From assembly GCA_965223855.1 (NCBI GenBank), contig CBDCXM010000009.1, forward strand, positions 2,368,001 through 2,432,000: a stretch of 64,000 nt of DNA. Reading direction: 5' to 3'. The translations under genes and the position numbers were made by a program. Source of the stretch: Candidatus Multivoradales bacterium (lineage in GTDB: Bacteria > Acidobacteriota > Thermoanaerobaculia > Multivoradales > JAHEKO01). This document shows, piece after piece, positions 41,757 through 56,844 of the stretch (within the stretch, counting starts at the first letter, position 1; the number at the start of each line of letters is the position of its first letter). The notes under the pieces were generated by a model, which saw nothing but the letters and a program-made list of their open reading frames with translations, was not told the DNA's origin and did not search any database.

Positions 41757-43099
41757 AGTCGGTCCCTGCACGCCGTCTCCTTCCCGCCGCCGGCCTCGTG
41801 CTCGCGCTCGTTCTGCTGTTCGCTGTTCCGCCTGGCCTCTTCCGCCGGCCGAGCCTTCGGATCGACGAGCAGCAGCTCGAGGAGCCGCGCTGGGAGTTTC
41901 CGGAGGCGAGGACCTACGAGGTCGAGTTCGTCTGGCAGCCGACGATCTGGCAACGGCCGCAGCTCGAGTTCTGGGTCGACGATTGCCTGCGCTCGATCGT
42001 CATCAACGACGTCGACCTTTCCGCCCTGCTCGGGTACTGCGACTTCGTCGGCTCGCGGAAGCTCGACCTCGGCCCTCTGCTGGTCGATGGACGTGCCCAT
42101 CTGCGAGTCCAGGTCGAGAATCTCGGCGGTCCGGGCGGCATGACCGTCCACGGGGTGGCGAACGAGTTTCTCGCCACCTGGAGATACCTGGTGAGCTTCG
42201 GTCTCCTGCTCTGGTGGCTCCACCGTCCGGGTGAGGAACCCGGGGCCGGCGAGCCCGACACCGGAGCCTGGAGACGGCGCACGAGAGGCGTCGGGGCGGC
42301 CCTGGCGGCGGCAGCGGTCGTAGCCGGATTCTTCTGGCTGGGGTCTCGCTCGGACGGCGCCCGGGACGGCTCGCACTCCCGGTCCGAGGGCGAGAGAGCA
42401 CCGCCTTCGATCGCCGAGGACAAGGAGCTCAACCCGCGGATTCTCGTCGCCGGCGGAGAGTTCCTCATGGGCAGCCCGGAGGGTGTCGCCTATGAAGACG
42501 AGCGTCCTGTCCGCCGGGTGCGGATCTCGAGCTTCCGAATGCAGCGCTACGAGGTCACCAACGAGGAGTACCTGCGCTTCCGCCCCGGCCATCGCTTCCT
42601 CCCCGGGCAGGAGCGCTACCCGGCGGTGAACGTGACCTGGGAGGACGCCCGCGCCTACGCACGATGGCTCGGCGGCAGTCTGCCGACCGAGGCGCAGTGG
42701 GAGTTTGCCGCTCGGGGGCCACGGGGGCGCAAGTACCCCTGGGGCGACGAGCCACCCGATTGCTCGAGAGCGAACTTCAACGACTGCGGCTGGCGGCTCG
42801 CCCCTGTCGGCGGCCGACCGGCCGGAGCCACGAGGGGCGGGATCGAAGACCTGGCTGGTAATGTCTGGGAGTGGTGCACCGACTGGTACGCCGACCGGTA
42901 TCCGTCGCCCGGTTCGCCCGAAGCGGTAACGGATCCGACCGGTGCGCCCTCGGGCTGGGAGCGGGTGATGCGGGGCGGCTCCCTCATCGGCGGTCCCGGT
43001 CACCTGAGAGGCGCCTATCGCGGCTCCTACAACCCGGGCTTCCTGGGGCACGACATCGGCTTCCGGGTGGTTTGGCCGGAGGAGCGGGAGTCTCCGTGA
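41753..43099 (+). CDS. Membrane-anchored FGE/SUMF1-family protein
   Basis: 'FLMGS', 'YEVTN', 'LPTEAQWEFAARG', 'GNVWEW', 'IGFR'. Confidence 0.88.
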   Translation: MKSVPARRLLPAAGLVLALVLLFAVPPGLFRRPSLRIDEQQLEEPRWEFPEARTYEVEFVWQPTIWQRPQLEFWVDDCLRSIVINDVDLSALLGYCDFVGSRKLDLGPLLVDGRAHLRVQVENLGGPGGMTVHGVANEFLATWRYLVSFGLLLWWLHRPGEEPGAGEPDTGAWRRRTRGVGAALAAAAVVAGFFWLGSRSDGARDGSHSRSEGERAPPSIAEDKELNPRILVAGGEFLMGSPEGVAYEDERPVRRVRISSFRMQRYEVTNEEYLRFRPGHRFLPGQERYPAVNVTWEDARAYARWLGGSLPTEAQWEFAARGPRGRKYPWGDEPPDCSRANFNDCGWRLAPVGGRPAGATRGGIEDLAGNVWEWCTDWYADRYPSPGSPEAVTDPTGAPSGWERVMRGGSLIGGPGHLRGAYRGSYNPGFLGHDIGFRVVWPEERESP

Positions 43100-43130
43100 G
43101 TCTCGGCCCGGCGTGGGCCCACCAGGGGCC

Positions 43131-44978
43131 ATGAACGTCCTCGGACTCATCTTCCACCGGGACTTTCCCCACCCTGCCGCCTGCCTGCTGCGCGACGGCG
43201 ATCTGGTGGCGCTGGGGGAGGAAGAGCGTTTCGTCCGGGTGAAGGGGGCAAAGGGGTTCTTCCCCGGGCGCGCGATCCGCTACTGCCTGGACGAAGGCGG
43301 CCTCTCACTCGCCGACGTCGACCAGATCGCCTTCGGCTGGGACGCGAGCAAGTATCGCTGGCGCTATCCGCTCTTCCTGGCGCGCAGTTTCCTGAGCCAT
43401 CGCCTCTTCGGGAGGAGGGCACGGCCGCGTCGGAGTTCCGGAGAGCGTGGCGCCGGTGGCGGACCGCGACAGGGCTCTGCCGTCCTGGACGGTCTCCGCG
43501 ACCTCCTCGCCACCCACCCTCGGAGTCTCGGGCAGAGCCTCGCCTTCGGCTTCCGTGAAGCGGGATTTCACGGCGAGTTGCCGCCGATCTCCTTTCTCGA
43601 TCATCACGAGTGCCACGCGGCGACCGCCTACTACTGCTCGGGCTTCGACGAGAGCGCTGTACTCGTCTTCGATGGGCACGGCGAGGAGAACACGGTCACG
43701 ATCTGGAAGGGCGAAGGCGACCGGTTGACCCGACTTCGCAGGGTGGTCATCCCGCACTCCCTCGGCTGGTTCTACGCCATGTTCACCGAGTACCTGGGAT
43801 GGGACCCGAACGAGGGTGAGGTCAAGCTCATGGGGTTGGCTCCGTTCGGCGAACCGAACGCCGAGCTTCGCGAGGTGGTCGATTCGATTCTGCGGCTCAC
43901 CCCGGAGGCGATCGAGGTCGATGCCGACTACCTCTTCTACCGTCCGCGCAGCTACGGGCGCTTCTTCAGCGATCTGCTGGTCGAGAGGTTGGGGCCGCCG
44001 CGCGGGCGGGACGACGAGGTCACCGACCGCCATCGCGACATCGCTGCCGCGGTGCAGGCGCGACTCGAGCAGGCCGGCGTCCACCTGGCACGGATCGCAC
44101 TCGAGGCGGCCGGCTCGGCCAACCTCTGCCTGGCGGGCGGAGTGGCGCTCAACTGCAAGATGAACGGCCACCTGCACGCCCTGGGGCTCGCCGAGAAGCT
44201 CTTCGTGCAACCGGTCTCGTACGACGCCGGTGTCGCGCTGGGTGCCGCGCAACTCGTCGCCCGTCGCGGCGGAGACGAGGTGCGCTCACGGATGCGCCAC
44301 GTTCAGTACGGCCCGGCCTTCGGCGCCGACGAGATCGAGACGGTGCTGCGGCGGAACCGCATCGACTTCCGGCGCAGCAGCGACGTGGCGGCGGAGACTG
44401 CGGAGTTCCTCGCGCAGGGCAGGATCGTCGCCTGGTTCCAGGGGCGGATGGAGGTCGGGCCTCGCTCCCTCGGCGCTCGCTCGATCCTCGCCGATCCACG
44501 GGACCCCGCCATGAAGGACCGGGTCAACGACTCGGTCAAGTTCCGTGAGGCGTGGCGACCGTTCGCTCTCTCGCTGCTGGAGGAGTTCAAGGACGAGTAT
44601 CTCGAGAAACCCGCCGACTCGCCCTTCATGATCCTCGCCTTCGAGGTTGCGAAGGCCCGGCGTGGCGAACTGTCGAGCGCGATGCACTGGGTCGATCACA
44701 CGACGAGGCCCCAGACGGTGTCTCGCGAGACCCAACCGCTCTTCTGGGCGCTGATCGATCGGTTTCGCCGGCTCAGCGGCGTTCCGGGCGTGCTCAACAC
44801 CTCGTTCAATGTCAAGGGTGAGCCCGTGGTGTGCAGCCCTGACGATGCGCTCCGCTGCTTCTTCGGCACCGGGCTCGAAGTCCTGGTGATGGGCGACTTC
44901 GTCGTCGAGAAGGCGGCCCAGAGCCGGGGGACCGCTAGCCGGCGGCGCGACGCCGGTCTGCCGTCGACTTCATCGTGA
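43131..44978 (+). CDS. Carbamoyltransferase (NodU/CmcH family)
   Basis: 'EEERF', 'HHECHA', 'EVKLMGLA', 'AGGVALN', 'LNTSFN'. Confidence 0.95.
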   Translation: MNVLGLIFHRDFPHPAACLLRDGDLVALGEEERFVRVKGAKGFFPGRAIRYCLDEGGLSLADVDQIAFGWDASKYRWRYPLFLARSFLSHRLFGRRARPRRSSGERGAGGGPRQGSAVLDGLRDLLATHPRSLGQSLAFGFREAGFHGELPPISFLDHHECHAATAYYCSGFDESAVLVFDGHGEENTVTIWKGEGDRLTRLRRVVIPHSLGWFYAMFTEYLGWDPNEGEVKLMGLAPFGEPNAELREVVDSILRLTPEAIEVDADYLFYRPRSYGRFFSDLLVERLGPPRGRDDEVTDRHRDIAAAVQARLEQAGVHLARIALEAAGSANLCLAGGVALNCKMNGHLHALGLAEKLFVQPVSYDAGVALGAAQLVARRGGDEVRSRMRHVQYGPAFGADEIETVLRRNRIDFRRSSDVAAETAEFLAQGRIVAWFQGRMEVGPRSLGARSILADPRDPAMKDRVNDSVKFREAWRPFALSLLEEFKDEYLEKPADSPFMILAFEVAKARRGELSSAMHWVDHTTRPQTVSRETQPLFWALIDRFRRLSGVPGVLNTSFNVKGEPVVCSPDDALRCFFGTGLEVLVMGDFVVEKAAQSRGTASRRRDAGLPSTSS

Positions 44979-45765
44979 CGAAGTCGAAGCGCGGGGCGAG
45001 GGCGGCGAGCAGCGAGTCGAGCTTGCGCTCGTTGCGGACGCGTCCATAGTTGAGGATGAAGCGGTCGACGAGCGACGACCGGGAGCCTCCGGGTTCGCCG
45101 TGGCTCCGGTAGAACTCCCAGGGGTGGAAGTAGAGGAACGCCGGCCGGCCGGCGGCGATGAACCGTCGCAGGAGAGGGCTCGGAAGGAGCCGGAAGTAGA
45201 AGCCGCCGACCCACGGCCATCGCGGGAAGCCGATCCTCGGGAGCGGGATCTCGACGAGCCGCGATCGGTGAACGAAAGGACGGACGGGGAAGTTGCGGTC
45301 GCCGTAGAGACCGGTCTCGAACTGGCAGAAGCTGCTGTCGTACTCATAGCCCTCGGCCAGCAGCAGATCGAGGAACTCGAGATGCCGGCCATAGGGCACC
45401 GACCAGGACGGGCAGCGGAAACCGACCACTGCTCTCCCGGTCGCTTCCTCGAGGACCGCTTTCGACCGCCGCACCTCGTCGCGCCACGCCGCTTCGTCGA
45501 GCGTGGAGAAGAGTGGGTGCGAGCAGCTGTGCGAGGCGATCTCGTGGCCTCCGTCTGCGATCGCCCGGAGCGTCTCGGGGCCGAAGTCGTCTGAGACGAC
45601 GAAGAAGGTCGCCCGCGCGCGGTGGCGCTCGAGCAGCTCGATCAGGTCGTGAATCCTGGCGATGTCTCGATCGAGATCGCGATGGAGCTCGACCCCGGTC
45701 AGCAGATGCGCCCGACCCCACCACTCGGTGTCGAAGGTCAGGGCGAGAGGATGTTTCTCATCCAT
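44935..45765 (-). CDS. Polysaccharide deacetylase family (DUF3473-type)
   Basis: 'TFDTE', 'ATFFV', 'HEIASHSCSH', 'GFRCP', 'YDSS', 'YFHPWE'. Confidence 0.9.
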   Translation of the reverse strand: MDEKHPLALTFDTEWWGRAHLLTGVELHRDLDRDIARIHDLIELLERHRARATFFVVSDDFGPETLRAIADGGHEIASHSCSHPLFSTLDEAAWRDEVRRSKAVLEEATGRAVVGFRCPSWSVPYGRHLEFLDLLLAEGYEYDSSFCQFETGLYGDRNFPVRPFVHRSRLVEIPLPRIGFPRWPWVGGFYFRLLPSPLLRRFIAAGRPAFLYFHPWEFYRSHGEPGGSRSSLVDRFILNYGRVRNERKLDSLLAALAPRFDFVTMKSTADRRRAAG

Positions 45766-46126
45766 CGCTCGGGAGAGCGTCCCTGTCGGGCGGGGAGCCG
45801 TCTTCCGCCGTCGTCAGGGCGATGTGACGCACGAGCCGGGTGAGCTCGGCCTCCAGCCGCCGGGTCTTGCGGTAGAAGTAGAACGCCGCTGCCGGAAAGG
45901 CGAGCGCGAGGGTGTAGAGGACCAGGTCGGCGCCTCGCCCGACCCCCAGCGCGTGTGCGACGCTGGTCGTGATCTCGGGTCGCCACACGGCGATCGCCGC
46001 TGCGAACCAGAGCAGGGAGCGGGAGAGGGCGATCCACCGCGGTCGCTCGCCGAGCAGAAACCTCGCCGTGCTCGTGACGAAGAAGAGACCGGCGAGCGGG
46101 ATCACGACGATCTGGAAAAGCAACAT
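45758..46126 (-). CDS. DUF2304-family membrane protein
   Basis: 'LGVGRGADLVLY', 'LTRLVRHIAL'; coupled to the GT2 gene. Confidence 0.88.
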   Translation of the reverse strand: MLLFQIVVIPLAGLFFVTSTARFLLGERPRWIALSRSLLWFAAAIAVWRPEITTSVAHALGVGRGADLVLYTLALAFPAAAFYFYRKTRRLEAELTRLVRHIALTTAEDGSPPDRDALPSDG

Positions 46127-46818
46127 CAGCGCAGCTTCTCGAGAAGGACCTCGATCGCGATGCGAAACGCGTTGCTGGAGCGCTGCCCCTTGGCGATCGA
46201 GTACTCGGAGTAGCGGATCGTCACCGGAACCTCGACGTAACGCCACCGGTTCCGGGCAATCTGCTCCAGGATGTCGGAGGCGTGCGCCATCCGGTCCATT
46301 CCGATCGACAGTGTGCCGGCCGCTTCGCGGGAGAGGGCGCGAAAGCCGTTGTGGGCGTCGGTGATTCGCAGACCCGTGATGGCGCGGGTGAAGAGGACGC
46401 CGCACTTGAGGACGAGCCGGCGGGCCATCGGGACGCGGCTGTGGCGATCGAGAAATCTGGTGCCGATGGCCACGTCGCAGTGGCCGGCAGCGACCGGTGC
46501 GACGAGGTCCTCGATCTGTGTGGGATCGTGCTGCCCGTCGGCGTCGAAGGTCACGATGATGTCCGCCCCGAGATTCAAGGCGTGCCGGATTCCCGTTTCC
46601 AATGCTGCGCCCTGGCCGCGATTGACCACATGCCGCAGCCGGCTCGCGCCCAGTCCCTCGAGTTGCCGCCAGGTGCCGTCGGAGGAGCCGTCGTCCACCA
46701 CGACCACTCGCCAACCGCGCGACAGCACCTCCCGAACGACGGCACGAATCACCCGGGCCTCGTTGAAGGCGGCGATGACCACTTCGACGTGGGGGCGGGA
46801 TTCTGGATGGGCGGCCAT
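46126..46818 (-). CDS. GT2 glycosyltransferase (polyprenol-phosphate glycosyltransferase-like)
   Basis: 'AFNE', 'VDDGSSD', 'NRGQGAAL', 'FDADGQH', 'TDAHNGFR'. Confidence 0.92.
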   Translation of the reverse strand: MAAHPESRPHVEVVIAAFNEARVIRAVVREVLSRGWRVVVVDDGSSDGTWRQLEGLGASRLRHVVNRGQGAALETGIRHALNLGADIIVTFDADGQHDPTQIEDLVAPVAAGHCDVAIGTRFLDRHSRVPMARRLVLKCGVLFTRAITGLRITDAHNGFRALSREAAGTLSIGMDRMAHASDILEQIARNRWRYVEVPVTIRYSEYSIAKGQRSSNAFRIAIEVLLEKLR

Positions 46819-46958
46819 CGGCGGTGGGCGAGCGGGAAGACGCTCGGCGTCACTATCCTGTCAGCGTAGCTTGCTGCTGTAACCCCCGGGCGAGCAGGAA
46901 GTCGATCGGGGAATTCGAAGGATCGCCTCCTGCCCGCCATCCAATCTCGCGGGGGCCC

Positions 46959-47873
46959 ATGGAACCAGCAGCTCGCTCATCGCCGACGGCGACCGTCGTC
47001 CTGTCGACCTACAACCAGCCCGCCTGGCTGGAGCTGGCTCTCGACGGCTACGCCCTTCAAAGCGAGCGCGACTTCGAGTTGATCGTCGCCGACGACGGTT
47101 CCGGGCGGGAAACGGCTGCCGTCGTCGACGCCTTCCGCCGGCGAAGCGGGCTGCCGGTGCTGCACCAGTGGCAGGAAGATCGCGGATTCAGAAAGTGCCG
47201 CGCCCTCAACCGCGCGATCGCCGCAAGTCGCGGCGAGTACCTGATCTTCAGCGACGGGGATTGCGTCCCGCCCCCGGACTTCGTCGCCACTCATCTGTGG
47301 CATGCGCGAAGCGGACGGTTTCTCTCCGGCAGCTACTACAAGCTCGCCGCGTCGGTCAGTGCGCGGATCGCCCGGAGCGGGCCGGACCCGGAACCGCCGT
47401 CGATTCGCAACCTGCTCGCCCTCGGCTGCGCGCCCGGGCTGGCGCTTCTGAAGGCGGCGGCGTTGCCACCCGTCCTCGAGTGGGCGCTCGACCGGGTGGC
47501 AGCGATCAAGCGGATCACCTGGAATGGTCACAACTCCTCGGCGTGGAAGCGGGACCTGGTACGGGTCAACGGATTCGACGAGCGGATGGGCTACTGGGGT
47601 GAGGATCGTGAGTTGGGCTTGCGCCTGCGCCATGCCGGGGTCCGGCCGCTGCAGCTCCGTCATCGCTGCTGCTGCCTCCACCTGCATCACGAGCGGCCGT
47701 ACCGCGACCCGGCGCTCCAGACCCGCAACCGCGAGCTGCTTCGCGAGGTGGTCTCCCATAGACGGAGCTGGACGCTCCACGGCCTCGCCCCGGGGCCTCC
47801 GCGGCCGCAGATTCCGATCCCGCACCCGGTGGGCGCGAAGGATTTTCGTCCGGCCGGCATCTCACAGAGTTGA
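46959..47873 (+). CDS. GT2 glycosyltransferase
   Basis: 'STYN', 'ADDGS', 'FSDGD', 'NGFDE..WGED'. Confidence 0.9.
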   Translation: MEPAARSSPTATVVLSTYNQPAWLELALDGYALQSERDFELIVADDGSGRETAAVVDAFRRRSGLPVLHQWQEDRGFRKCRALNRAIAASRGEYLIFSDGDCVPPPDFVATHLWHARSGRFLSGSYYKLAASVSARIARSGPDPEPPSIRNLLALGCAPGLALLKAAALPPVLEWALDRVAAIKRITWNGHNSSAWKRDLVRVNGFDERMGYWGEDRELGLRLRHAGVRPLQLRHRCCCLHLHHERPYRDPALQTRNRELLREVVSHRRSWTLHGLAPGPPRPQIPIPHPVGAKDFRPAGISQS

Positions 47874-48024
47874 GGAACGCCGTGACGTTCAGCGTCACCC
47901 GGACGACGGCGGGGGTTCCATTCTCCAGTACAGACCGCGGTTCTCGGTTGGATGCAGAGTCGCTGAGCCGCAAAGCCTCGGGAGGGCTCGAGTGGTGGAA
48001 CGAAGCTTCAGGAAGTCATTACGG

Positions 48025-49308
48025 ATGCTGGTGCTGTCGGCGCTTGCGGTGCCGATGGCCATAGGCGCTCAGGAAGGGCCCATCACTCTCGAGTTCAGTC
48101 TCTCGAACCCGGGAGCCCGCAGCATGGGCCTCGGTGGCGCCTTTGCCGCCCTGGCCGATGATGCGACCGCAGCCTTCGCGAACCCGGCCGGGCTCGTTCA
48201 GCTGATCGAACCGGAGTTTTCGATCGAGGGGCGCTTCACGTCGGTGGACACTGAGTTCGTGGAGGGGGGACGGGCGGTCGGGGAGCCGACAGGGTTCGGG
48301 ATCGACACAATTGCGGGGGTGAGGACCGGCGTCTCGACCAACGAGAGCTCGGATGCCTCGTTCGCCTCGCTGGTCTTTCCCGCAAGGCGCGCGGCTGTTG
48401 CCCTGTACCGGCACGTCTGGGCGGATTTCGATCTCACGAGACGGGTGGACGGGCTCTTCGGCGACGTGGAGGGAGAGCTCGATCGCTCCGAGGACGTCCT
48501 CGCGAGGACGCGGGTGCGTGTCGTTCACACAGGCCTCGCGCTGGCGCTCGAGGTGACCGATCGCTTCAGCATCGGCATCGCAGCCGTCTCGTTCGATGCC
48601 GACATGGACTCGCGTTCCGTCGAGTACGGACAGGAGGACGACGGATTCTTCGAGCCGAATCCGTTCACGCCTGAGCTGGTCGATACGCTCTACTCGTACC
48701 GGTCGACGACGAGCGACTGGGTCGGGCACGTCGGGATTCTGCTGCGCCCCTCCGATCGATGGTCGCTGGGCGCGTACTACCGTGAGGGGCCGACCCTCGA
48801 GCTCCGGGTGGTGGAGACCGTGGGCCCGGCCGATGACGAAGTCCCTGCGGGGACGATCGAACTCGATACGACGACCCCCCTCGAGCTACCGGACGTCTAC
48901 GGCGTGGGGATCGCGGTGCACAGCGCCGACGGTCGCTGGACGACGAGCGTCGAGTGGGCCCACGTACGCTACTCGGCGATCGTCCGCAGCCTCGACACCG
49001 CCGTCTTCGACCCGGACCAGATCGCGATCGAGGACGGAAGCGAGCTCCACTTCGGGATCGAGCGCATTCTGAGCCGGGCTCGTCCCATCGTCGGGCTCCG
49101 CCTCGGTGCATGGCTCGATCCCGACCATCGCGTCGGTTCCGGTTTCGACGCCGACGTGTTCGAGAGCGCCATCTTCCGCGCCGGCGACGACCTCTGGCAC
49201 GGCACCGGCGGACTCGGACTGGTGTTCGAGAGCTTCCAGCTGGACTTCGGCTTCGATCTGTCGGAGCGGGGGCATACCGCCTCGATCTCGGTCGTCTATC
49301 GGTTCTGA
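48025..49308 (+). CDS. FadL/PorV-like outer-membrane beta-barrel protein
   Basis: 'NPGARSMGLGGAFAALADDATAAFANPAGL'; C-terminal 'VYRF'. Confidence 0.8.
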   Translation: MLVLSALAVPMAIGAQEGPITLEFSLSNPGARSMGLGGAFAALADDATAAFANPAGLVQLIEPEFSIEGRFTSVDTEFVEGGRAVGEPTGFGIDTIAGVRTGVSTNESSDASFASLVFPARRAAVALYRHVWADFDLTRRVDGLFGDVEGELDRSEDVLARTRVRVVHTGLALALEVTDRFSIGIAAVSFDADMDSRSVEYGQEDDGFFEPNPFTPELVDTLYSYRSTTSDWVGHVGILLRPSDRWSLGAYYREGPTLELRVVETVGPADDEVPAGTIELDTTTPLELPDVYGVGIAVHSADGRWTTSVEWAHVRYSAIVRSLDTAVFDPDQIAIEDGSELHFGIERILSRARPIVGLRLGAWLDPDHRVGSGFDADVFESAIFRAGDDLWHGTGGLGLVFESFQLDFGFDLSERGHTASISVVYRF

Positions 49309-51671
49309 TGAACCCGCGTCGACTCGCGGCGGCGGCCGTCGCGATTCTGCTCTTCGCTGCCGCACCGCCGGCGGCCGCGGGGCCGTGGTTCGAGGAGTAC
49401 CACGAGGCGGAGCGCGCCGTGGCCTCCCGGCGCTGGGAGCTCGCCGTGGAGCATCTGCGTGCCGCACTGGCGGATCGTCCCGACTCCGCGGCTCGTGCGC
49501 GGACCTATGGCATGCGCTTCGTCGACTACTTCCCGTACCTCCAGCTCGGGATTGCCTACCGCGGCCTGGGCAGACCCGGCGCAGCTCTCCAGGCGTTCGA
49601 GTCCGAGCTCAGTCAGGGGGCGATCCAGCAGGTACCCGCGCGCCTGCGCGAGCTGCAGACGCTGATCGAAGCGGTGGAGAAGGAAGTGGCGAGCGCGCGT
49701 CTCGAGGAATCGACGCGCGGCGAGCGGCTGATCGCCGAAGGGCTCTCCCGCGCTGCGCGTCAGGAGGAGGCGGGAGATCTCGATGCTGCGGCGGACTCGC
49801 TGGACCGGGTGCTCGCGCTGGCTCCTGAGTCGGAGGAGGCACTCGCCGCGGCCGAACGCGTGCGTGCTGCGCGAGCCGAGCGGCAACGCCGGATCGATGC
49901 CCGAGAGCGTGCCGGCAGGCTGCGCCTCCGAGGCGGAGAGGAGCTTTCGCGTGGCGATCCGCGGGCCGCGGCGGCCAGCTTCGGCGAGGCCGAGCAACTG
50001 TTCCCGACGGACGAGGGCGCCAGGGGGCTCGAAGAGGCGAGGTCGGCGCTGGCCGGGCAGTTGCGGCGCTCGGCGGCTCCCGATCCGATTCCCGGACGAC
50101 TCGACCGGGCGCGCGCGTTCGAGGCGGAAGGGCGATGGCTCGAGGCGATTCGCGAGGTGCAGTCGGTGCTCGCCCTGCAGCCGGGGCACGAGGAAGCGCT
50201 CGAGTTCGAGGAGCGTCTTGCCAGGCTGCGCGCCGACGACGAGGCGGAGAGGGAGTCGGGCCGGCAGGTCTCCGCCCTTCTCGAAACGCTCCGAACTCTT
50301 CGATCGGCCGGCGACCTTGCCGGCACGCTCAGGGCGGCCAACCGGATCCTGGTGCTCGATCCGGGCCACGGCGAAGCGCTCACGGCTGTGGCCGAGGCTC
50401 ACTCCCGGCTGGGAGAGCAACTCCTGGTCGTCGACGGCGAAGCTCCCGTAATCGTGATCGACGGCGCCGGCGCGCCCGGAGAGGAGTGGATCGTGAGCGA
50501 AGGCTCAGGATGGCTCGCCGGCCGGGTCCTCGATGCGACGCCGGTCGAGTTGGTCGCAAGCATCGATGGTCAGGATCACCCGGTCGAGGTTTCGGAAGTG
50601 CGGATGGGAGGGATCTGGGTGAGCGACTTCCGAGTCGCTGCGGTGCTCGATCCCGGCGTGTCGACGGTGCGAGTCGAGGCGCGAGACCTGTCCGGCCGGG
50701 AGACGACCCTCGAACGCGAGGTCGAGTACCGCCGGTCGCTGCTGCGGTCGCGAGGCCTCTTCGGGATCGCGGCCCTGTGCCTCGCGCTCGCGGGAAGCGG
50801 AGCACTGGCGTGGCGCTTCCTGCGGCGCAGGGCCCTCCTGAGAAGGCGCTTCAATCCGTACGTCGCCGGCGCCCCGATTCTCGACGGGGAGCGCTACTAC
50901 GGGCGTCGGAAGCTGCTCGACTACGTGCTACGTAGAATCTCGAACAACAGCGTCATGCTCTACGGTGAGCGCAGGATCGGCAAGACGTCGTTCCAGCATC
51001 AGCTCAAGCGCTGCCTCGGAGAGCTCGACGATCCCGACCACGAGTTCTTCCCCGTCTTCGTCGATCTGCAGGGAATTCCGCAGGAGCGCTTCTTCGCGAC
51101 GCTGGCGACCGAGGTGTTTCACGAGCTGGGGCCGCGTCTCGGTGGGCTCGAGCCCGATCCCTCACTCGCCACCGGCGAGTACGGCTACCGGACCTTCGTG
51201 CGAGACCTGCAGAAGACCTTGGCGGCCCTTCAGGAGCGCAACACCAAGAAGGTCAAGCTCGTGCTCCTGATCGACGAAGTCGACGAGCTCAACGACTACG
51301 ACCCGCGAGTGAACCAGCGGCTGCGCAGCCTCTTCATGCGCTCGTTCTCCGACCGCCTGGTGGCGGTGGTCTCGGGGGTGACGATCAAGAAGCAGTGGGA
51401 GCGCGAGGGGAGCCCCTGGTACAACTTCTTCCAGGAGGTCGAGGTCGAGCCGCTGGGGGCCGGCGAGGCGCGAGCGCTCATCGAAGCTCCGGTGGCCGGA
51501 ATCTTCCGCTTCGAGGAGGCGGCAGCGCTCGAGATCGTCGAGCGGACGCGGAGCAAGCCCTACCTGATTCAGCGCCTCTGCTCGAGTCTCATCGACCGGA
51601 TGCACGAGGAAGGGCGGAGGACGGTCGGCATCGACGACGTCGAGGCCGCCTGCGCGGCGGAGGGTCTCTGA
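49308..51671 (+). CDS. Signal peptide + TPR + Ig-like + TM + cytoplasmic STAND-like P-loop ATPase
   Basis: 'YFPYLQLGIAY', TPRs, TM; 'NPYVAG', Walker A GERRIGKTS, Walker B LLIDEVD. Confidence 0.88.
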   Translation: MNPRRLAAAAVAILLFAAAPPAAAGPWFEEYHEAERAVASRRWELAVEHLRAALADRPDSAARARTYGMRFVDYFPYLQLGIAYRGLGRPGAALQAFESELSQGAIQQVPARLRELQTLIEAVEKEVASARLEESTRGERLIAEGLSRAARQEEAGDLDAAADSLDRVLALAPESEEALAAAERVRAARAERQRRIDARERAGRLRLRGGEELSRGDPRAAAASFGEAEQLFPTDEGARGLEEARSALAGQLRRSAAPDPIPGRLDRARAFEAEGRWLEAIREVQSVLALQPGHEEALEFEERLARLRADDEAERESGRQVSALLETLRTLRSAGDLAGTLRAANRILVLDPGHGEALTAVAEAHSRLGEQLLVVDGEAPVIVIDGAGAPGEEWIVSEGSGWLAGRVLDATPVELVASIDGQDHPVEVSEVRMGGIWVSDFRVAAVLDPGVSTVRVEARDLSGRETTLEREVEYRRSLLRSRGLFGIAALCLALAGSGALAWRFLRRRALLRRRFNPYVAGAPILDGERYYGRRKLLDYVLRRISNNSVMLYGERRIGKTSFQHQLKRCLGELDDPDHEFFPVFVDLQGIPQERFFATLATEVFHELGPRLGGLEPDPSLATGEYGYRTFVRDLQKTLAALQERNTKKVKLVLLIDEVDELNDYDPRVNQRLRSLFMRSFSDRLVAVVSGVTIKKQWEREGSPWYNFFQEVEVEPLGAGEARALIEAPVAGIFRFEEAAALEIVERTRSKPYLIQRLCSSLIDRMHEEGRRTVGIDDVEAACAAEGL

Positions 51672-51672
51672 C

Positions 51673-53640
51673 ATGGCCGTCACTCCCTACGTCGTCGGCC
51701 AGTGGGTACGAGGAGACGCCTTCTACGGGCGCCGCTCGCTCCTGCGCGACATCCTCACGGGGCCACGCAATGGAATCTGGCTGCTCGGGACCCGGCGAGT
51801 CGGCAAGACTTCGGCTCTCAAGGAACTCGATCGGCTGGCGCGCGAGTCTCCCGGCTCCGACTACTTCCCGGTCTTCTGGGATTTCCAGGGGGTCGAAGGG
51901 CCTCACGAACTCAGGGAGAGCTTTCGGGACTCCCTGCTCGATGTGTCGCCTGACCTCGAGGAGCTCGGTATCGATCTCGAAGCGGTCGATCGCAGCGACC
52001 TTTTCGAGTCGATCAACAGGCTCCGAAGGGCGCTCGGCGAGCGAGATCGGCGGCTCCTGCTGCTGGGGGACGAGGCTGAGGAACTGGTGGCGATCCACGA
52101 GCGGGCGCCCCAGTTCCTCACCCGCCTGCGACGGGTGCTGCAGTCGTCCGAGGGGGTCAGGGCAGTGCTCGCCTCGACGATCCGGCTGTGGCGCCTCGCC
52201 GAGAGGGACACCAGCACTTCACCTTTTCTCCACGGTTTCACTCCGGCGAGGGTCGTCGGCCGCCTGTCGGACGATGCCGCGCTCAGCCTGGTTCGTCAGG
52301 ACCAGCTCGCTCCCGAAGCGCGGCCCGAGATCGACGGCGAGGCGGCCGAGCGCATTCGAGCCGCCTGCAACAACCATCCCTTCCTCCTGCAACTCGTCGC
52401 CGAGCGCCACCTCGAGAGCGGCGATCTCACCGCGGCGATCGAGGAGGTCGAGGCCGACTCCATGGCCGGCTTCTTCTTCCAGTCCGATCTGTCGATGCTG
52501 GAGTCCGGGGAGCGTTCCGGGTTGCGTTGGCTCGCCTGCCGCGAGGAACCCGCTTCGGAGGAGGAGTTGGGCCGGGCGATCGCCCCCTCGTCTTCCGCCA
52601 GCCGGTCCGGAGTGCACCGCTTGGAACTGTTGGGGTTCGTGGCGCGAGACGCCGCCGGAGGTCTCGAGATCGCGAATCGCTACTTCCGGCGCTGGCTTCT
52701 GGACTCGGAGGACTCTCCCGACACGGGAGCCGGCCGGGCGACGTCGGAGAGAGTTCTCGTCGGCGACCGCACTCTTGTCGGCGGTCGCTACGACCTGCTG
52801 GAGAAGCTCGGCGACGGCTCCACGGGAGAGGTCTTCAAGGCTCGCGACACCCTCCTCGACAGTATCGTTGCGGTCAAGCTGCTACGTCGCGACTACGGTG
52901 GGGAGAAGGCGGCTCTGGAGCGGCTGCGCCGCGAGGTGCTCCTGGCGCGCGACCTCAGTCATCCGAACCTCCTGAAGGTCTACCACCTCGGAGCCGACGG
53001 CGACCGGCGCTACGTGACGATGCGCTACATCGACGGCGAGAATCTCGCGAAGAAGCTGGCCTCGGAAGCGCGCCCTCCCCTCGCGTGGGGGCTCTCCGTC
53101 GCCCGCAAGCTCGCCTCCGCCCTCGCGGCCCTGCATCGGTGCGAGGTCCTGCATCGCGATCTCAAACCCTCCAACGTGCTGATCGACCGCTCCGGCGAAC
53201 CTCACATCTCCGACTTCGGCCTCGCCAGGCTCCCGTGGAGCCCTGGAGTGACGCGCGACGGCGGCTTCGTCGGAACCCCGGCCTACGCCTCGCCCGAGCA
53301 GGCGATGGGAGGCAAGCCGGACGCGCGCTCCGATCTCTACGCGTTGGGCCTCGTCCTCTTCGAGCTCTTCACCGGCCAGCGGGCGTTCGAGGCGGGCTCG
53401 GGACAGGATCTTCTCGAGCTGCAGGTCCACGCACCGGTGCCGCGACCGTCGGGAATCGCGCCGGACATTCCCGAGGAACTCTCGGCGATTGTCCTGCGAT
53501 GTCTCGAGAAGAAGCCGCTGGATCGGTACGAAAGTGCCGAGGCACTCGAGGCAAACCTCGAGAGAGTGCGGCTGCCTGCGATCTCCGACAGCCAGCCCGC
53601 CACGCCCGATGGCCGCAGCTCGTCGCCGGCCCGGAGTTAG
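51673..53640 (+). CDS. STAND-like ATPase fused to Hanks-type Ser/Thr kinase
   Basis: 'PYVVG', GTRRVGKTS, LLGDE; kinase VAVK, HRDLKPSN, DFG, SPEQ. Confidence 0.92.
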   Translation: MAVTPYVVGQWVRGDAFYGRRSLLRDILTGPRNGIWLLGTRRVGKTSALKELDRLARESPGSDYFPVFWDFQGVEGPHELRESFRDSLLDVSPDLEELGIDLEAVDRSDLFESINRLRRALGERDRRLLLLGDEAEELVAIHERAPQFLTRLRRVLQSSEGVRAVLASTIRLWRLAERDTSTSPFLHGFTPARVVGRLSDDAALSLVRQDQLAPEARPEIDGEAAERIRAACNNHPFLLQLVAERHLESGDLTAAIEEVEADSMAGFFFQSDLSMLESGERSGLRWLACREEPASEEELGRAIAPSSSASRSGVHRLELLGFVARDAAGGLEIANRYFRRWLLDSEDSPDTGAGRATSERVLVGDRTLVGGRYDLLEKLGDGSTGEVFKARDTLLDSIVAVKLLRRDYGGEKAALERLRREVLLARDLSHPNLLKVYHLGADGDRRYVTMRYIDGENLAKKLASEARPPLAWGLSVARKLASALAALHRCEVLHRDLKPSNVLIDRSGEPHISDFGLARLPWSPGVTRDGGFVGTPAYASPEQAMGGKPDARSDLYALGLVLFELFTGQRAFEAGSGQDLLELQVHAPVPRPSGIAPDIPEELSAIVLRCLEKKPLDRYESAEALEANLERVRLPAISDSQPATPDGRSSSPARS

Positions 53641-53713
53641 CCCGTCGACCGAAGGGTCGCGCCCTCCGGATCCGAGAGCCCCGGAGTAAGCGAGCCGAGT
53701 CGTCCGTGGCAGG

Positions 53714-53740
53714 AAAAGCGGGGCCCCGTGAGGGGCCCCG
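53714..53740 (-). terminator. Intrinsic terminator of the TonB receptor gene
   Basis: cggggcccc-gtga-ggggccccg hairpin followed by TTTT on the minus strand. Confidence 0.7.
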
Positions 53741-53764
53741 TGAGATCGCGTTCGACGGAGGTGG

Positions 53765-56707
53765 CTACCGGCTGGCGTCGAGGTCGACTTCGAGCCGCAC
53801 GTAGCCGACCATTCCCGGAAGATCGTGGAACGGGCTCATGCTGACGACGCCGCACGAATCGCAGACGCTCGGATCCTCGTCCAGCAGGTTGTTGATGCCG
53901 AACGCCAGAGTGCTCGACTCGTAGCCGGGCAGATCCCACCGAACCAGGAGGTCGGTGTAGAGGATCGACGCGAGCACACTACCCGAGTCCTGGATCATCG
54001 AGTCTTCCCAGCGGAAGGTGAGGCCGGCGTACCAGTTGTCCTTCGTGCGATCGACCCGCGCTCTCGCCCGCCACTCGGCGAACGCGCGCTGGAAGGTCTC
54101 GTTGGTGATCGTGCCGGTCCGGTCGGTGCTGGTGAGAGAGCCGTCCGGATTGCGGGTCAGCTCCGTGTAGTTGTCGAGGTAGGTGGCACTGAGGCTGGCG
54201 CCCCAGGCTCCGCCGCTCGTCCAGCCGAAGGCGAGGTCGGCGCCCGAGGCTTCGATCCCGCCGATGTTCTGAAGCTGGTTGTCGACCAGGTTGATGAGGC
54301 CGCTCGAAGCACGCTCGACCGCGTCGCAGAAGAACGGGTCCAGCGTGGCGACGCAGGCGTCGATCACCTCACCCGGGTCACGGCCCTGAATGGCGTTGTC
54401 GATCTGGAGGTCGTAGAAATCGACCGACAGCGACCAACCCGCCTGTGAGGTCCGCGTGGGGCTGTAGACGAAGCCGAACGAGTAGCCGTCCGAGGTCTCC
54501 GGCACCAGCCGCTCGTTGCCGGCTGAGATCGCGGAGAGTTGCGGGTTGCGCTGGGCGAAGCTGGTCGGCACGCCGAGGGCGGCGCAGTTGGCGACGATGT
54601 TGGCCGGCTGCGGCGTGTCGCGGCCACCGTTGGCGCTTCCGATCACGCCCAGCACGTCGGCGCAGGGGTCGAGGAAGGTGAAGTCCTCGCGCGCCGCGCC
54701 GCCGAAGAGCTCGCCGATGCCCGGTGCCCGGATCCCGGTGGAGATCGACCCGCGCAGCGAGAGCTCCGCGGTCGGGCGGTAGAGCACGCCGAGCTTGTAG
54801 GTGTCCTCCCCGCCGAAGGTGCTGTAGTCGGAGTAGCGAGTGGCGACGTTGAGCTCCAGATACTCCGCCATGGGGCTGTCGATCAGCAGCGGAAAGTTGA
54901 GCTCCAGGTAGGCCTCGGTGACGTCGAAGCCGCCCGCGGTCGGCGCAGACGGGATGCCGGCGGTCTCGCCGCTGGCGGCGATCGGGTCGGGCTGAAAGGA
55001 GCCCTTCTGATCGCGATACTCGACGCCGGCGGCGAAGCCGACCCGGGCCTGGTTGCTGAGCTCGAACAGGTCGCCGGTGATGTCGGCGTTGAGGGTCGTC
55101 ATCTCCTGGTCGCTGAAGTCACGCTGGGTGTAGGTGATGAAGTCGAGCATCTCCTGCGTGATCGAGCCGGTGCCGTTGGGTCCCTGGCCGCCGAAGAAGT
55201 TGAACGGCACGCAGTTCGGAACCAGAGCGCAGATCGCCGGATCGCCGAGAGCCAGCGCGATCTTGGCGATGTTGTGAGAGTTGAACTTCTGCTGAAAGCC
55301 GCTGTTCTCGCCATAGGAGGCGGTGATGTCCCAGCTGAAGTTGCGCGAACCGCTCGTGAACTCGCCGTCGATGCTGGCGCTGGTGAAGTAGGTGTCGACG
55401 TCCTGCTCGAAGATGCGCGGCCCCGACTCGAGCGGCCGGCGGCCGAAGAACTCGAGGTTGCCGTTGGCCACCGAGAGGTCGATACCGAACGGGTTGAACG
55501 GGTTGTCGCGGTGGATGAGGATGTTCTCGGCGATCCGGTTGCCGCAGCCGTTGCCCAGGCACAGCGGCTCCGGTGCCGCACGGGTCGACGACTGGCGGTT
55601 GGTGTAGGACGCCTTGAGATTGAGAGTCGTGGCTTCGCTCAAGGCGTGGCTGAGCGACGTGTGGAGATTGACCCTCTGATTGGGGGTCTTCAGGTAGTTG
55701 AAGTCGAAGCCGTTGTAGTTGAAACGGTCGGCGCTGGTGAAGGTGTGGAAGTCGCCGCTGCCGGGATCGTCGGGGTTGAAGACCGGGATGTTGGCGACGC
55801 CGTCGTTGAGGACCCCGTCGTTGAGTGTGATGCTCGCGAAGTCGAAGTTCGGCCCGAGGATGAAGCGCCCCTGAGGCGTGAACGAGGAGCACAGGGTTCC
55901 CGGAACGTCGCAACTGGTCGCGAACGGGTTGGGGAAAGCCGACTGGGCGCGATCTGTGGTCGTGACGGCGCCCTCCTGGTAGTAGGAGGCGCTGAACATG
56001 AGGTGGGTGTCCTCGTTGCCGGTGCCCCACAGTCCGCTGACCTCGGTGCCCTCGCCGTCTCCTTCGCTGACGAAGCGCCCGGTCTGAGCGCCGATCTGCA
56101 TGCCCTGGAAGCCGGTGCGGGTGATGATGTTGACGACACCACCGATAGCGTCGGACCCGTAGATGGCGGAGGCGCCGTCCTGCAGGACCTCCACCTTCTC
56201 GATCATGTTGGCCGGCAGAGTGTTGAGATCGACCGAGTTGGAGACGCCGGAAGCCGAGGCGCCCGGGATCCAACGCTTGCCGTCGACCAGCACGAGGGTG
56301 CGCTTGGCGCCGACGTTCCTCAGGGAGAGCTGGATCGCTCCGGCGCCGATGCCGTTGCCGTCCTGCGGGAAGCCGGAGTTGCCGGGGACGTTGAAGCGGG
56401 CGTTGATCGCCGAGCCCATGCTCGGGATCTGCTGGAGCGTCTGACCGATGTTGGTGAGGCCCGACTGCTTGATCTCGAGTTCACCGACCTCGACCAACGG
56501 AGCGCGCTGGTAGAGCGGGCTGGTGGCGATTCTCGACCCGGTGACGACGATGGTGTCGCTGACGGTGTCGTCGGCGTCCGCCTCCGTGTCTTCACCTTCC
56601 TCGACCTGGTTCTCCTCGGTCGAGGATGCCTCTTCGTCCTCCTGAGCCACGGCCGGGCCGAAGGCGACGGCGAGACCGAGGAGGCACAACAGAAAAGTCC
56701 TGCGCAT
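53765..56707 (-). CDS. TonB-dependent receptor
   Basis: TonB box 'DTIVVTGSRI', 'RTLVLVDG', 'GASAIYGSDAIGGVVNIIT'; RBS + ATG 56707. Confidence 0.95.
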   Translation of the reverse strand: MRRTFLLCLLGLAVAFGPAVAQEDEEASSTEENQVEEGEDTEADADDTVSDTIVVTGSRIATSPLYQRAPLVEVGELEIKQSGLTNIGQTLQQIPSMGSAINARFNVPGNSGFPQDGNGIGAGAIQLSLRNVGAKRTLVLVDGKRWIPGASASGVSNSVDLNTLPANMIEKVEVLQDGASAIYGSDAIGGVVNIITRTGFQGMQIGAQTGRFVSEGDGEGTEVSGLWGTGNEDTHLMFSASYYQEGAVTTTDRAQSAFPNPFATSCDVPGTLCSSFTPQGRFILGPNFDFASITLNDGVLNDGVANIPVFNPDDPGSGDFHTFTSADRFNYNGFDFNYLKTPNQRVNLHTSLSHALSEATTLNLKASYTNRQSSTRAAPEPLCLGNGCGNRIAENILIHRDNPFNPFGIDLSVANGNLEFFGRRPLESGPRIFEQDVDTYFTSASIDGEFTSGSRNFSWDITASYGENSGFQQKFNSHNIAKIALALGDPAICALVPNCVPFNFFGGQGPNGTGSITQEMLDFITYTQRDFSDQEMTTLNADITGDLFELSNQARVGFAAGVEYRDQKGSFQPDPIAASGETAGIPSAPTAGGFDVTEAYLELNFPLLIDSPMAEYLELNVATRYSDYSTFGGEDTYKLGVLYRPTAELSLRGSISTGIRAPGIGELFGGAAREDFTFLDPCADVLGVIGSANGGRDTPQPANIVANCAALGVPTSFAQRNPQLSAISAGNERLVPETSDGYSFGFVYSPTRTSQAGWSLSVDFYDLQIDNAIQGRDPGEVIDACVATLDPFFCDAVERASSGLINLVDNQLQNIGGIEASGADLAFGWTSGGAWGASLSATYLDNYTELTRNPDGSLTSTDRTGTITNETFQRAFAEWRARARVDRTKDNWYAGLTFRWEDSMIQDSGSVLASILYTDLLVRWDLPGYESSTLAFGINNLLDEDPSVCDSCGVVSMSPFHDLPGMVGYVRLEVDLDASR

Positions 56708-56844
56708 AGTGGTTCCCCCTTGCGTTGGTCGCAAGCCGCTCCCGACCAGACGACGCGCTGAAACCACTCGGATCTGCGCCATCGGCGCCGACTCGGTTTG
56801 CGAGATTCGTTGCGAGCACCGTAGCAACGCCGGAGTGTCGTGAT

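Follow-up and report, generated by a model that had tools for sequence, protein, structure and literature searches.

Switch ATPases that command a fused output are known from the STAND regulators MalT, AfsR/SARP-type proteins and PknK, in which sensor, switch and output are united in one soluble chain and a P-loop ATPase, followed by a lid and a winged helix, controls a DNA-binding or kinase output. In pairs of immune nucleotide-binding leucine-rich repeat proteins (NLRs), such as NAIP-NLRC4 or a plant sensor with its NRC helper, sensing and output are divided between two paralogous NTPases. Fec-type cell-surface signaling (FecA-FecR-FecI) runs from a channel in the outer membrane through a bitopic inner-membrane protein, which has a periplasmic domain, to an extracytoplasmic function (ECF) sigma factor, and the channel gene belongs to the regulated locus. 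Hybrid two-component sensors of the Reg_prop/Y_Y_Y kind place outer sensor repeats, a membrane-proximal beta-sandwich and one transmembrane helix before a histidine kinase transmitter. Finally, in the accessible part of PMC13147305, the ECF43/Hanks pairs EcfP/PknT and EcfK/PknS tie a transmembrane receptor kinase genetically to a PF07638-type sigma factor in which Thr replaces the acidic sigma-2.2 motif. Here we analyze a stretch of 64,000 nucleotides (nt) from a Candidatus Multivoradales bacterium (assembly GCA_965223855.1, contig CBDCXM010000009.1; hereafter, the window), in which three adjacent genes encode a FadL-type barrel (gene 1), a bitopic receptor-ATPase (gene 2) and a partner ATPase joined to a Hanks-type Ser/Thr kinase (gene 3). 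With moderate confidence, we favor the view that this cassette serves signal transduction across a membrane, possibly across the whole envelope, and that its core is a pair of paralogous AAA+ ATPases.

The cassette shares with the STAND regulators the P-loop switch ATPase, lid and winged helix that control a DNA-binding or kinase output, and its gene 2 ATPase aligns with MalT, but the sensor-ATPase is set across the membrane and the output is placed on a second ATPase that has no sensor repeats. The original prediction had compared the two ATPases with an NLR sensor/helper pair. As a formal analogy, two paralogous NTPases that divide sensing and output, the comparison stands if their hetero-oligomerization is real; it does not extend to immunity, since the outputs found among relatives are a kinase, a sigma factor or a winged helix and not death effectors, the sensor is periplasmic and conserved, and the binding is only weakly predicted in silico. 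The likeness to Fec-type signaling, drawn by analogy, is one of function only: the barrel has neither a TonB box nor a signaling domain, the inner-membrane protein is an ATPase and not a FecR anti-sigma factor (a Pfam search found no FecR domain in genes 1–3), and the sigma factors of relatives are fused to the ATPase. The layout of gene 2 is that of the hybrid two-component sensors, whose Reg_prop/Y_Y_Y domains are used by some receptor-ATPase relatives, but an AAA+ ATPase takes the place of the histidine kinase and there is no receiver domain. Relatives of the cassette resemble the ECF43/Hanks pairs in the tie between a Hanks kinase and a PF07638-type sigma factor with the same Thr substitution; in contrast to PknS and PknT, the cassette kinase is soluble and sits on an ATPase paired with a separate receptor. 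In agreement with the original prediction, which knew of no such system, this architecture is not described in the literature searched, including the accessible parts of PMC7826278, PMC8195603, PMC10907252, PMC7159879 and PMC11032199; the supplements of these papers, which lay outside the search, may list it. PMC10570129, in which the outer-membrane sensor is of the TonB type and not of the FadL type, offers a loose precedent only. The cassette is a real, apparently undescribed signaling architecture and a variant of AAA+/STAND-switch signaling.

The three genes are as tightly packed as had been predicted. The TGA of gene 1 (49306–49308) shares one base with the ATG of gene 2 (49308–49310; TGATG), and a single base separates the TGA of gene 2 (51669–51671) from the ATG of gene 3 (51673). 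For gene 1, the ATG at 48025 proposed earlier gives way to the GTG at 47992, a more likely start, which has GGGAGGG 6 nt upstream and provides a normal signal peptide with a basic n-region. Judging from its sequence, gene 1 is a member of the FadL/TodX outer-membrane channels and thus the barrel it had been taken for. It matches Pfam Toluene_X/FadL (PF03349) with 34.1 bits (cut-off 29.7), a domain matched by 37 of 37 aligned barrel relatives, and a profile of these relatives retrieved the PDB chains CymD, FadL and TbuX at 1e-7 to 1e-5. An NCBIfam search of genes 1 and 2 yielded sub-threshold matches only.

The predicted layout of gene 2, with a periplasmic TPR region, a beta-sandwich, one transmembrane segment and a cytoplasmic ATPase, was borne out by Pfam (TPR_14, 43.5 bits; TPR_2, 37.4 bits; both above cut-off) and by the AlphaFold2 model (mean predicted local distance difference test [pLDDT] score of 87). 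In this model, whose residues are counted from 49305 and are therefore one higher than in the true protein of 787 amino acids (aa), the N-terminus is a hydrophobic signal-peptide helix ending in AAA-G, the transmembrane helix (483–513) is followed by the Arg-rich segment RFLRRRALLRRR, and the ATPase domain spans residues 523–786. A Pfam scan did not detect Y_Y_Y in the window protein; in relatives with Reg_prop sensors, this domain occupies the position of the beta-sandwich. At least 738 full-length relatives show 41–51% identity to gene 2, and the periplasmic sensor can be aligned over its full length between phyla and shows no hypervariability.

On the evidence of sequence and model, gene 3 is a Hanks-type Ser/Thr protein kinase (Pkinase in Pfam, E = 1e-44) whose Gly loop, VAVK, HRDLKPSN, DFG and SPE motifs are intact; across 52 sequences, neither the catalytic residues nor Thr527 of the activation loop varies. 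In the AlphaFold2 model (pLDDT 84), a disordered linker separates the winged helix from the kinase, and the top Foldseek match was PknB (E = 3.6e-21, TM-score 0.85–0.92 on the target). The matches listed for the whole model were kinases only, so this search is uninformative about the ATPase. All the motifs originally quoted were found, namely NPYVAG, GERRIGKTS and LLIDE in gene 2 and PYVVG, GTRRVGKTS and LLGDE in gene 3. The two ATPase domains are 29% identical over 279 columns (E = 2e-15) and are, by this measure, paralogs, which agrees with the earlier description of gene 3 as a paralogous soluble ATPase fused to an intact kinase. The Walker A Lys and the Walker B Asp-Glu are invariant in both ATPase families.

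Relatives of the receptor are encoded in at least 397 loci of species-representative genomes, and the receptor profile matched 805 clusters (50% identity) at E ≤ 1e-30. We compared the 80 loci that scored best by receptor similarity among these at least 397, and these are not a random sample. All 80 belong to metagenome-assembled genomes, distributed among the Acidobacteriota (Thermoanaerobaculia, Holophagales, Vicinamibacteria, Polarisedimenticolia and Sulfomarinibacteraceae), the Gammaproteobacteria/Woeseiaceae, the Binatia and a few others; the named records among the matches listed are also uncultured metagenome-assembled genomes, mostly of Acidobacteriota and Woeseiaceae. Partners were counted in the 67 loci that continue for at least 1200 nt beyond the receptor. 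A gene 3-type ATPase follows within 150 nt on the same strand in 56 of them and is present somewhere in the locus in 63, the remaining seven being of the Woeseiaceae type, with a divergent winged-helix ATPase; the partner is missing from four loci (L071, L078, L090 and L096). Similarly, 16 of the 19 loci fetched around gene 3-type matches have a receptor ATPase directly upstream. A FadL-type barrel is present, in several different arrangements, in 39 of the 47 loci of at least 14 kb. The neighborhood search thus confirmed that the three genes co-occur in other genomes, as originally proposed.

The distribution of the cassette is wide but patchy. Its own genome holds one ATPase pair only. Among 61 related genomes, the partner ATPase was found in 20, nearly always beside a weaker receptor-type match, and all 20 also have the barrel, which occurs alone in 11 others and is absent, like the ATPase, from the remaining 30; since these genomes are kin, the counts are not independent. 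Of 301 genomes drawn evenly from the phylum, with eight first-look candidates scored per genome, seven had a receptor ATPase at E ≤ 1e-40. One place in one genome, covered by L012 and L080, holds a cassette that looks decayed, with barrel, receptor and kinase-ATPase genes that match in pieces and contain in-frame TGA stops. An in-frame stop also lies within the winged-helix ATPase gene of L088 (5958–6965).

To the original prediction, receptor and kinase functions were split over two ATPases, and the comparison of the loci agrees with this. In a FastTree phylogeny of all 80 partner ATPases and 20 of the 80 receptor ATPases, the two kinds form separate clades, each with 100% support, whose major groups match each other; the outputs are on the partner and the sensors on the receptor. 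The partner may carry a C-terminal kinase (the sole partner form in 37 of the 80 loci), a C-terminal Sigma70_ECF domain (PF07638), an N-terminal Trans_reg_C domain (OmpR-type winged helix), a kinase and a sigma factor in one chain (L003, L006, L008 and P0087), or no output. Bare partners form a clade of their own, and a third, bare ATPase is present in some loci. The tree requires at least three changes of the kinase label and at least four of the winged-helix label, and the window falls within a kinase clade of 14 rows. On the receptor side, the transmembrane-ATPase module is also found behind Reg_prop/Y_Y_Y, Laminin_G_3, CarboxypepD_reg and other N-termini. These sequence comparisons support the division of receptor and output functions between two ATPases whose pairing is old and constant. 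A constant core on which sensors and outputs can be exchanged indicates a signaling system and not an immune one.

Two results bear on the hetero-oligomerization of the ATPases that had been postulated. In the relative P0388, a single chain unites a sensor with ATPases of both the gene 2 and the gene 3 type; its gene 3-type stretch matches gene 3 of the window at E = 3e-37, and the value for its gene 2-type stretch is E = 2e-14. In addition, complex prediction with residues 510–788 of gene 2 and 1–366 of gene 3 gave a score of 0.57 (runs of 0.53, 0.57 and 0.59; best control, 0.00), with a partner pLDDT of at least 79 and at least 70% of the contacts shared between runs. Of 157 solved complexes, 116 reached the mark applied, as did 2 of 215 mismatched pairs, and scores of up to 0.60 comprise 18 of the 157 solved complexes and both mismatches that passed. 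The natural fusion and this weak score fit a direct coupling.

We infer the binding of the ATPases, the direction of the signal, the ligand and the kinase substrate as follows. Gene 2 would be the receptor, which after cleavage of its signal peptide exposes the TPR array and the beta-sandwich to the periplasm and, through one transmembrane helix, uses its ATPase as the transmitter. Gene 3 would be the cytoplasmic partner, whose sister ATPase and winged helix carry the output, here the Hanks kinase. A periplasmic signal would alter the oligomeric or nucleotide state of the receptor, the receptor ATPase would engage the partner ATPase in an ATP-dependent hetero-oligomer, and the clustered kinase domains would trans-autophosphorylate at the conserved activation-loop Thr. 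The kinase would then phosphorylate a target, most probably an ECF43-like sigma factor, and transcription would shift, probably including that of FadL-type channel genes and of the operon itself. Among the different outputs, a kinase could be switched by proximity, and a sigma factor or a winged helix by capture and release. The FadL-type barrel might deliver a hydrophobic ligand to the periplasmic domain, be a regulated channel, or both, as in Fec-type signaling.

It is quite conceivable, if a little short of probable, that such "receptor ATPases" constitute a receptor class of their own, in which an AAA+/STAND-like ATPase replaces the histidine kinase and recruits a paralogous ATPase open to almost any output (kinase, ECF sigma factor, DNA-binding domain) or present as a bare adaptor, with FadL channels as a built-in part, for surface signaling by hydrophobic compounds in sediment and soil bacteria. 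The class would then stand beside two-component, ECF/anti-sigma and Hanks-kinase signaling. If the mechanism is true, an entire family of transmembrane receptors has so far escaped notice, and ATPase switches of the NLR/MalT kind can be distributed across a membrane and made to serve ordinary gene regulation. It would also offer a way into the sensing of hydrophobic substrates by little-known bacteria of sediments and soils. Because the outputs are interchangeable, the hypothesis lends itself to direct tests.

Several observations weigh against the signal-transduction reading, beginning with the choice of the 80 loci by score and with the nature of the ATPases. The window proteins remain below the Pfam cut-offs of AAA_22, ATPase_2, NACHT and nSTAND1: gene 2 reached 18.8 bits with NACHT (cut-off 26.7) and 20.2 bits with ATPase_2 (PF01637; cut-off 33.2), and gene 3 matched no STAND model of Pfam at E ≤ 0.01. 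Moreover, the fold is as near to ORC/Cdc6, RuvB and TnsC as to MalT or the NLRs. In VIA, the gene 2 ATPase aligned with ORC/Cdc6 (Z 18.6–17.0), MalT (16.9), PAB2304 (16.6), SSO1545 (15.1) and ZAR1 (14.7), and MuB and TnsC were also among the structural matches; in Foldseek, it matched ORC, RuvB and PAB2304 at about 1e-5. Because of this equal nearness, to speak of a switch that oligomerizes is an analogy. As for the coupling, the fused form of P0388, a single case, could be a gene-calling or sequencing artifact. The complex score of 0.57 falls in the tool's "weak" band and is a score without an interface, and, being a model result, the pass may reflect likeness to solved AAA+ assemblies.

Further features of the ATPases bear on the original prediction of STAND-like NTPases. 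The Walker A form GxRRxGKTS is present in genes 2 and 3. The best match of the gene 3 profile among PDB sequences was SSO1545 (2fna, E = 6.4e-4), followed by a plant NLR, at the GxP stretch, and PAB2304; the NHPFL stretch of gene 3 aligns with the GxP stretches of SSO1545 and the plant NLR. Run against PDB sequences, a profile built from the gene 2 ATPase gave no match below E = 0.07, and the ESM Atlas neighbors were clusters of AAA_22, nSTAND1, nSTAND2 and NACHT. In gene 3, the NTPase, lid and winged helix follow in STAND order, a three-module order that ORC/Cdc6 shares; gene 2 carries SKPYLIQ (consensus GKPYLIQ) yet ends after the lid, without a winged helix. Sensor repeats C-terminal of the NTPase are absent from gene 3, and the TPRs of gene 2 are N-terminal and on the opposite side of the membrane. 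When the proposed classification with hidden Markov models was run, some relatives reached family cut-offs and the window proteins did not: the nSTAND1 cut-off (27.1 bits) was just reached by L006 (31.6), L003 (27.1) and P0022 (27.4), and that of ATPase_2 was passed by P0300 (52.7), P0308 (36.0), P0345 (35.8), P0321 (34.2) and P0022 (39.8). We therefore call the proteins AAA+ switch ATPases of the Arch_ATPase/STAND neighborhood.

Regarding the kinase substrate, an ECF43-like sigma factor is suggested because relatives have such a sigma factor fused behind the kinase. The sigma factors in this position carry HTLQPTALVHEAY, and in the triple fusions (L003, L006, L008 and P0087) the motif reads QPTALVHEAY. 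In the accessible part of PMC13147305, a QTTA motif, which HTLQPTALVHEAY resembles, is given for ECF43 sigma factors that are phosphorylated by Hanks kinases, and PknS phosphorylates EcfK, an ECF43 sigma factor with Thr in a QTTA-type motif. The genome of the window has nine PF07638 sigma matches at E ≤ 4.3e-19, none of them fused to the ATPase. Against a sigma factor as the substrate, the window locus itself contains none, and the promoter-like motif described below was found upstream of 0 of the nine strong PF07638 sigma genes; the substrate is a guess made from relatives.

Upstream of gene 1, we noted the bipartite motif GAAGGATTT-N11-GCATC, whose core is GAAGGA-N14-GCATC. This core occurs six times in the 1.04 Mb of the 80 related loci, against 0–2 times in 20 shuffles, and all six occurrences are 101–138 nt upstream of a barrel gene, on the barrel's strand and in the window's own clade. 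The weight of the motif lies in this conserved position, because its own genome has nine exact cores in 4.5 Mb. The arrangement suggests that the whole operon may be driven from one specialized promoter, for which the motif is a candidate with an inferred function. No shared 7-mer was enriched upstream of 68 barrel genes, and a count of 8-mers upstream of 20 barrel genes from the taxonomic family of the window showed nothing clear. An ECF-like pattern, GGAAC-N14-18-CGT, was discarded, being present in just 2 of the 68 upstream regions. A scan of 46500–54500 for sigma-70 promoters returned 0 sites, and terminator-like sites in the same range numbered 2, with 2.8 expected. The only other copy of GAAGGATTT-N11-GCATC in the genome is at about 8186 (−) of L111 (G000:C9:168001-178500), at the junction of two unknown open reading frames (ORFs); it lies upstream of a TonB-dependent receptor and beside a FecI/FecR-like pair, and may be due to chance.

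The original prediction had the signal originate at the outer-membrane barrel, which is one possible reading. Gene 1 has no N-terminal signaling extension and begins directly with the conserved hatch motif. Barrel genes number 2–4 in a locus and up to 11 in a genome, many lying far away from the cassette; they are absent from 8 of the 47 long loci and occur without the ATPases in 11 of the 61 related genomes. The barrel may instead be a regulated target. OmpW-like small barrels recur beside the cassette, in 8 of 20 loci (the window stretch and 19 fetched ones), and together with a multi-copy barrel that lacks a signaling extension they fit a regulon for the uptake of hydrophobic substrates. 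That the barrel is a regulated product only, without a part in sensing, and that the TPR domain senses something else, is accordingly a serious possibility that we hold somewhat below even. What speaks for a part in sensing is that barrel and receptor genes overlap in the window's clade and share one operon behind the conserved motif, that TPR domains commonly dock partner proteins, and that a transporter acting as sensor and target at once is the rule in Fec-type systems. In the receptor module, the barrel may be a ligand feeder to the sensor, a regulated uptake channel, or both.

The relay could also run by the opposite logic, with the receptor ATPase holding the partner inactive at the membrane in an anti-sigma-like manner until the signal or ATP hydrolysis releases it. 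Sequestration is the usual mode of ECF systems in the accessible part of PMC7826278, and sigma or DNA-binding outputs must leave the membrane to work, so release would suit them better than clustering. The weak predicted contact between the ATPases is compatible with either direction, but the loci with a third, bare ATPase point to assembly and not to a simple clamp. Hanks kinases, moreover, are typically switched on by dimerization, which suits recruitment. We consider release from a clamp a real alternative for the direction of the switch, though the less likely one, and retain recruitment of the partner into a hetero-oligomer as the preferred mechanism.

An energized envelope machine, with the TPR arm as the link by which the inner-membrane ATPase powers transport or assembly at the barrel and with gene 3 as a regulator, would explain the translational coupling of the barrel and TPR-transmembrane-ATPase genes, and TPR-barrel pairs are known from export systems. 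This is improbable, given that the partner ATPase bears transcription and phosphorylation outputs, classic sensor domains take the place of the receptor's outer part in relatives, the fold of the ATPase is that of ORC/Cdc6/STAND switches and not that of an ABC or secretion motor, and FadL channels, to our knowledge, need no energy source. Least credible of all is an anti-phage or conflict role after the model of NLR sensor/helper pairs, for which the original prediction had suggested a phage challenge. In its favor one may cite the weak likeness to nSTAND1, NACHT and AAA_35, the prediction of paired STAND genes (nSTAND2) as conflict systems in the accessible part of PMC8195603 and the fusion of one distant relative, P0360, to SIR2-nSTAND1. 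The outputs of relatives, however, are a kinase, a sigma factor and a DNA-binding domain, so that the phage challenge has little to recommend it; no death effector is present, the conserved periplasmic sensor is unlike a hypervariable one, the neighbors are housekeeping envelope genes that differ between loci, and PADLOC 2.0 found no match for gene 1, one insignificant match for gene 2 (PDC-S01, E = 0.0054, no matched stretch) and only generic kinase models for gene 3 (PD-T4-6 and mad6, residues 353–650). In P0360, the SIR2 and strong nSTAND1 domains are joined to a second, receptor-like ATPase.

Table 1. Features of the cassette and its surroundings (positions in the window, except for the three L110 genes, which are numbered within that locus).
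Feature	Coordinates	Strand	Remarks
Polysaccharide-type genes	43113-47873		Carbamoyltransferase; polysaccharide deacetylase/DUF3473 (−); DUF2304 (−); glycosyltransferase family 2 (GT2); directly upstream of the cassette
Promoter-like bipartite motif (candidate)	47837..47861	+	Some 155 nt before the gene 1 start, within the 3' end of the GT2 gene
Gene 1, FadL/TodX-family outer-membrane barrel	47992..49308	+	438 aa from GTG 47992; Pfam, relatives, PDB profile
Gene 2, bitopic receptor-ATPase	49308..51671	+	787 aa
Gene 2, periplasmic TPR/helical array	49386..50426	+	Model residues 28-374; Pfam and AlphaFold2
Gene 2, membrane-proximal beta-sandwich	50448..50729	+	Model residues 382-475; AlphaFold2 secondary structure
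Gene 2, single transmembrane helix with Arg-rich cytoplasmic flank	50751..50843	+	Sequence and model helix 483-513
Gene 2, cytoplasmic AAA+ ATPase	50871..51662	+	Walker A GERRIGKTS, Walker B LLIDE, GxP-like SKPYLIQ
Gene 3, partner ATPase, winged helix and Hanks Ser/Thr kinase	51673..53640	+	655 aa
Gene 3, ATPase domain and helical lid	51673..52494	+	Residues 1-274
Gene 3, winged-helix domain	52504..52704	+	Residues 278-344; AlphaFold2 model; weak MarR/HTH matches (relatives, PDB profile search)
Gene 3, Hanks-type kinase domain	52789..53562	+	Residues 373-630
L110 gene	6952-8619	−	
L110 gene	4775-7072	−	
L110 gene	10885-11460	+	

Further observations concern the barrel family. The only other FadL-type paralog in the genome of the window, with 38% identity, is in L110 (G000:C8:436000-454000), where it adjoins a caspase-domain (Peptidase_C14) protein and is 2.3 kb away from a PF07638 ECF sigma gene. 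In P0345 (1129 aa), a FadL-type domain and a receptor-type ATPase form one predicted protein, probably by read-through of overlapping genes. A protein of about 227–255 aa without a Pfam match recurs between paralogous barrel genes in five loci (including L004:3549-4235 and L006:2906-3589).

The window has a G+C content of about 68%. A link of the cassette to polysaccharide export was considered and dropped, because the polysaccharide genes upstream are not common to the related loci compared. Farther upstream, an ORF of 833 aa (40598–43099, +) has a C-terminal FGE-sulfatase domain (E = 4e-48) preceded by about 600 residues without a Pfam match; in the accessible part of PMC8195603, this domain is discussed as a sensor of bacterial conflict systems. 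On the other side of the cassette, a TonB-dependent receptor gene (53765–56827, −) is convergent with gene 3, and the 124-nt gap behind gene 3 contains a hairpin (53719–53740, −) with a perfect 9-bp G+C stem followed by a T-rich tail, just past the end of the receptor gene.

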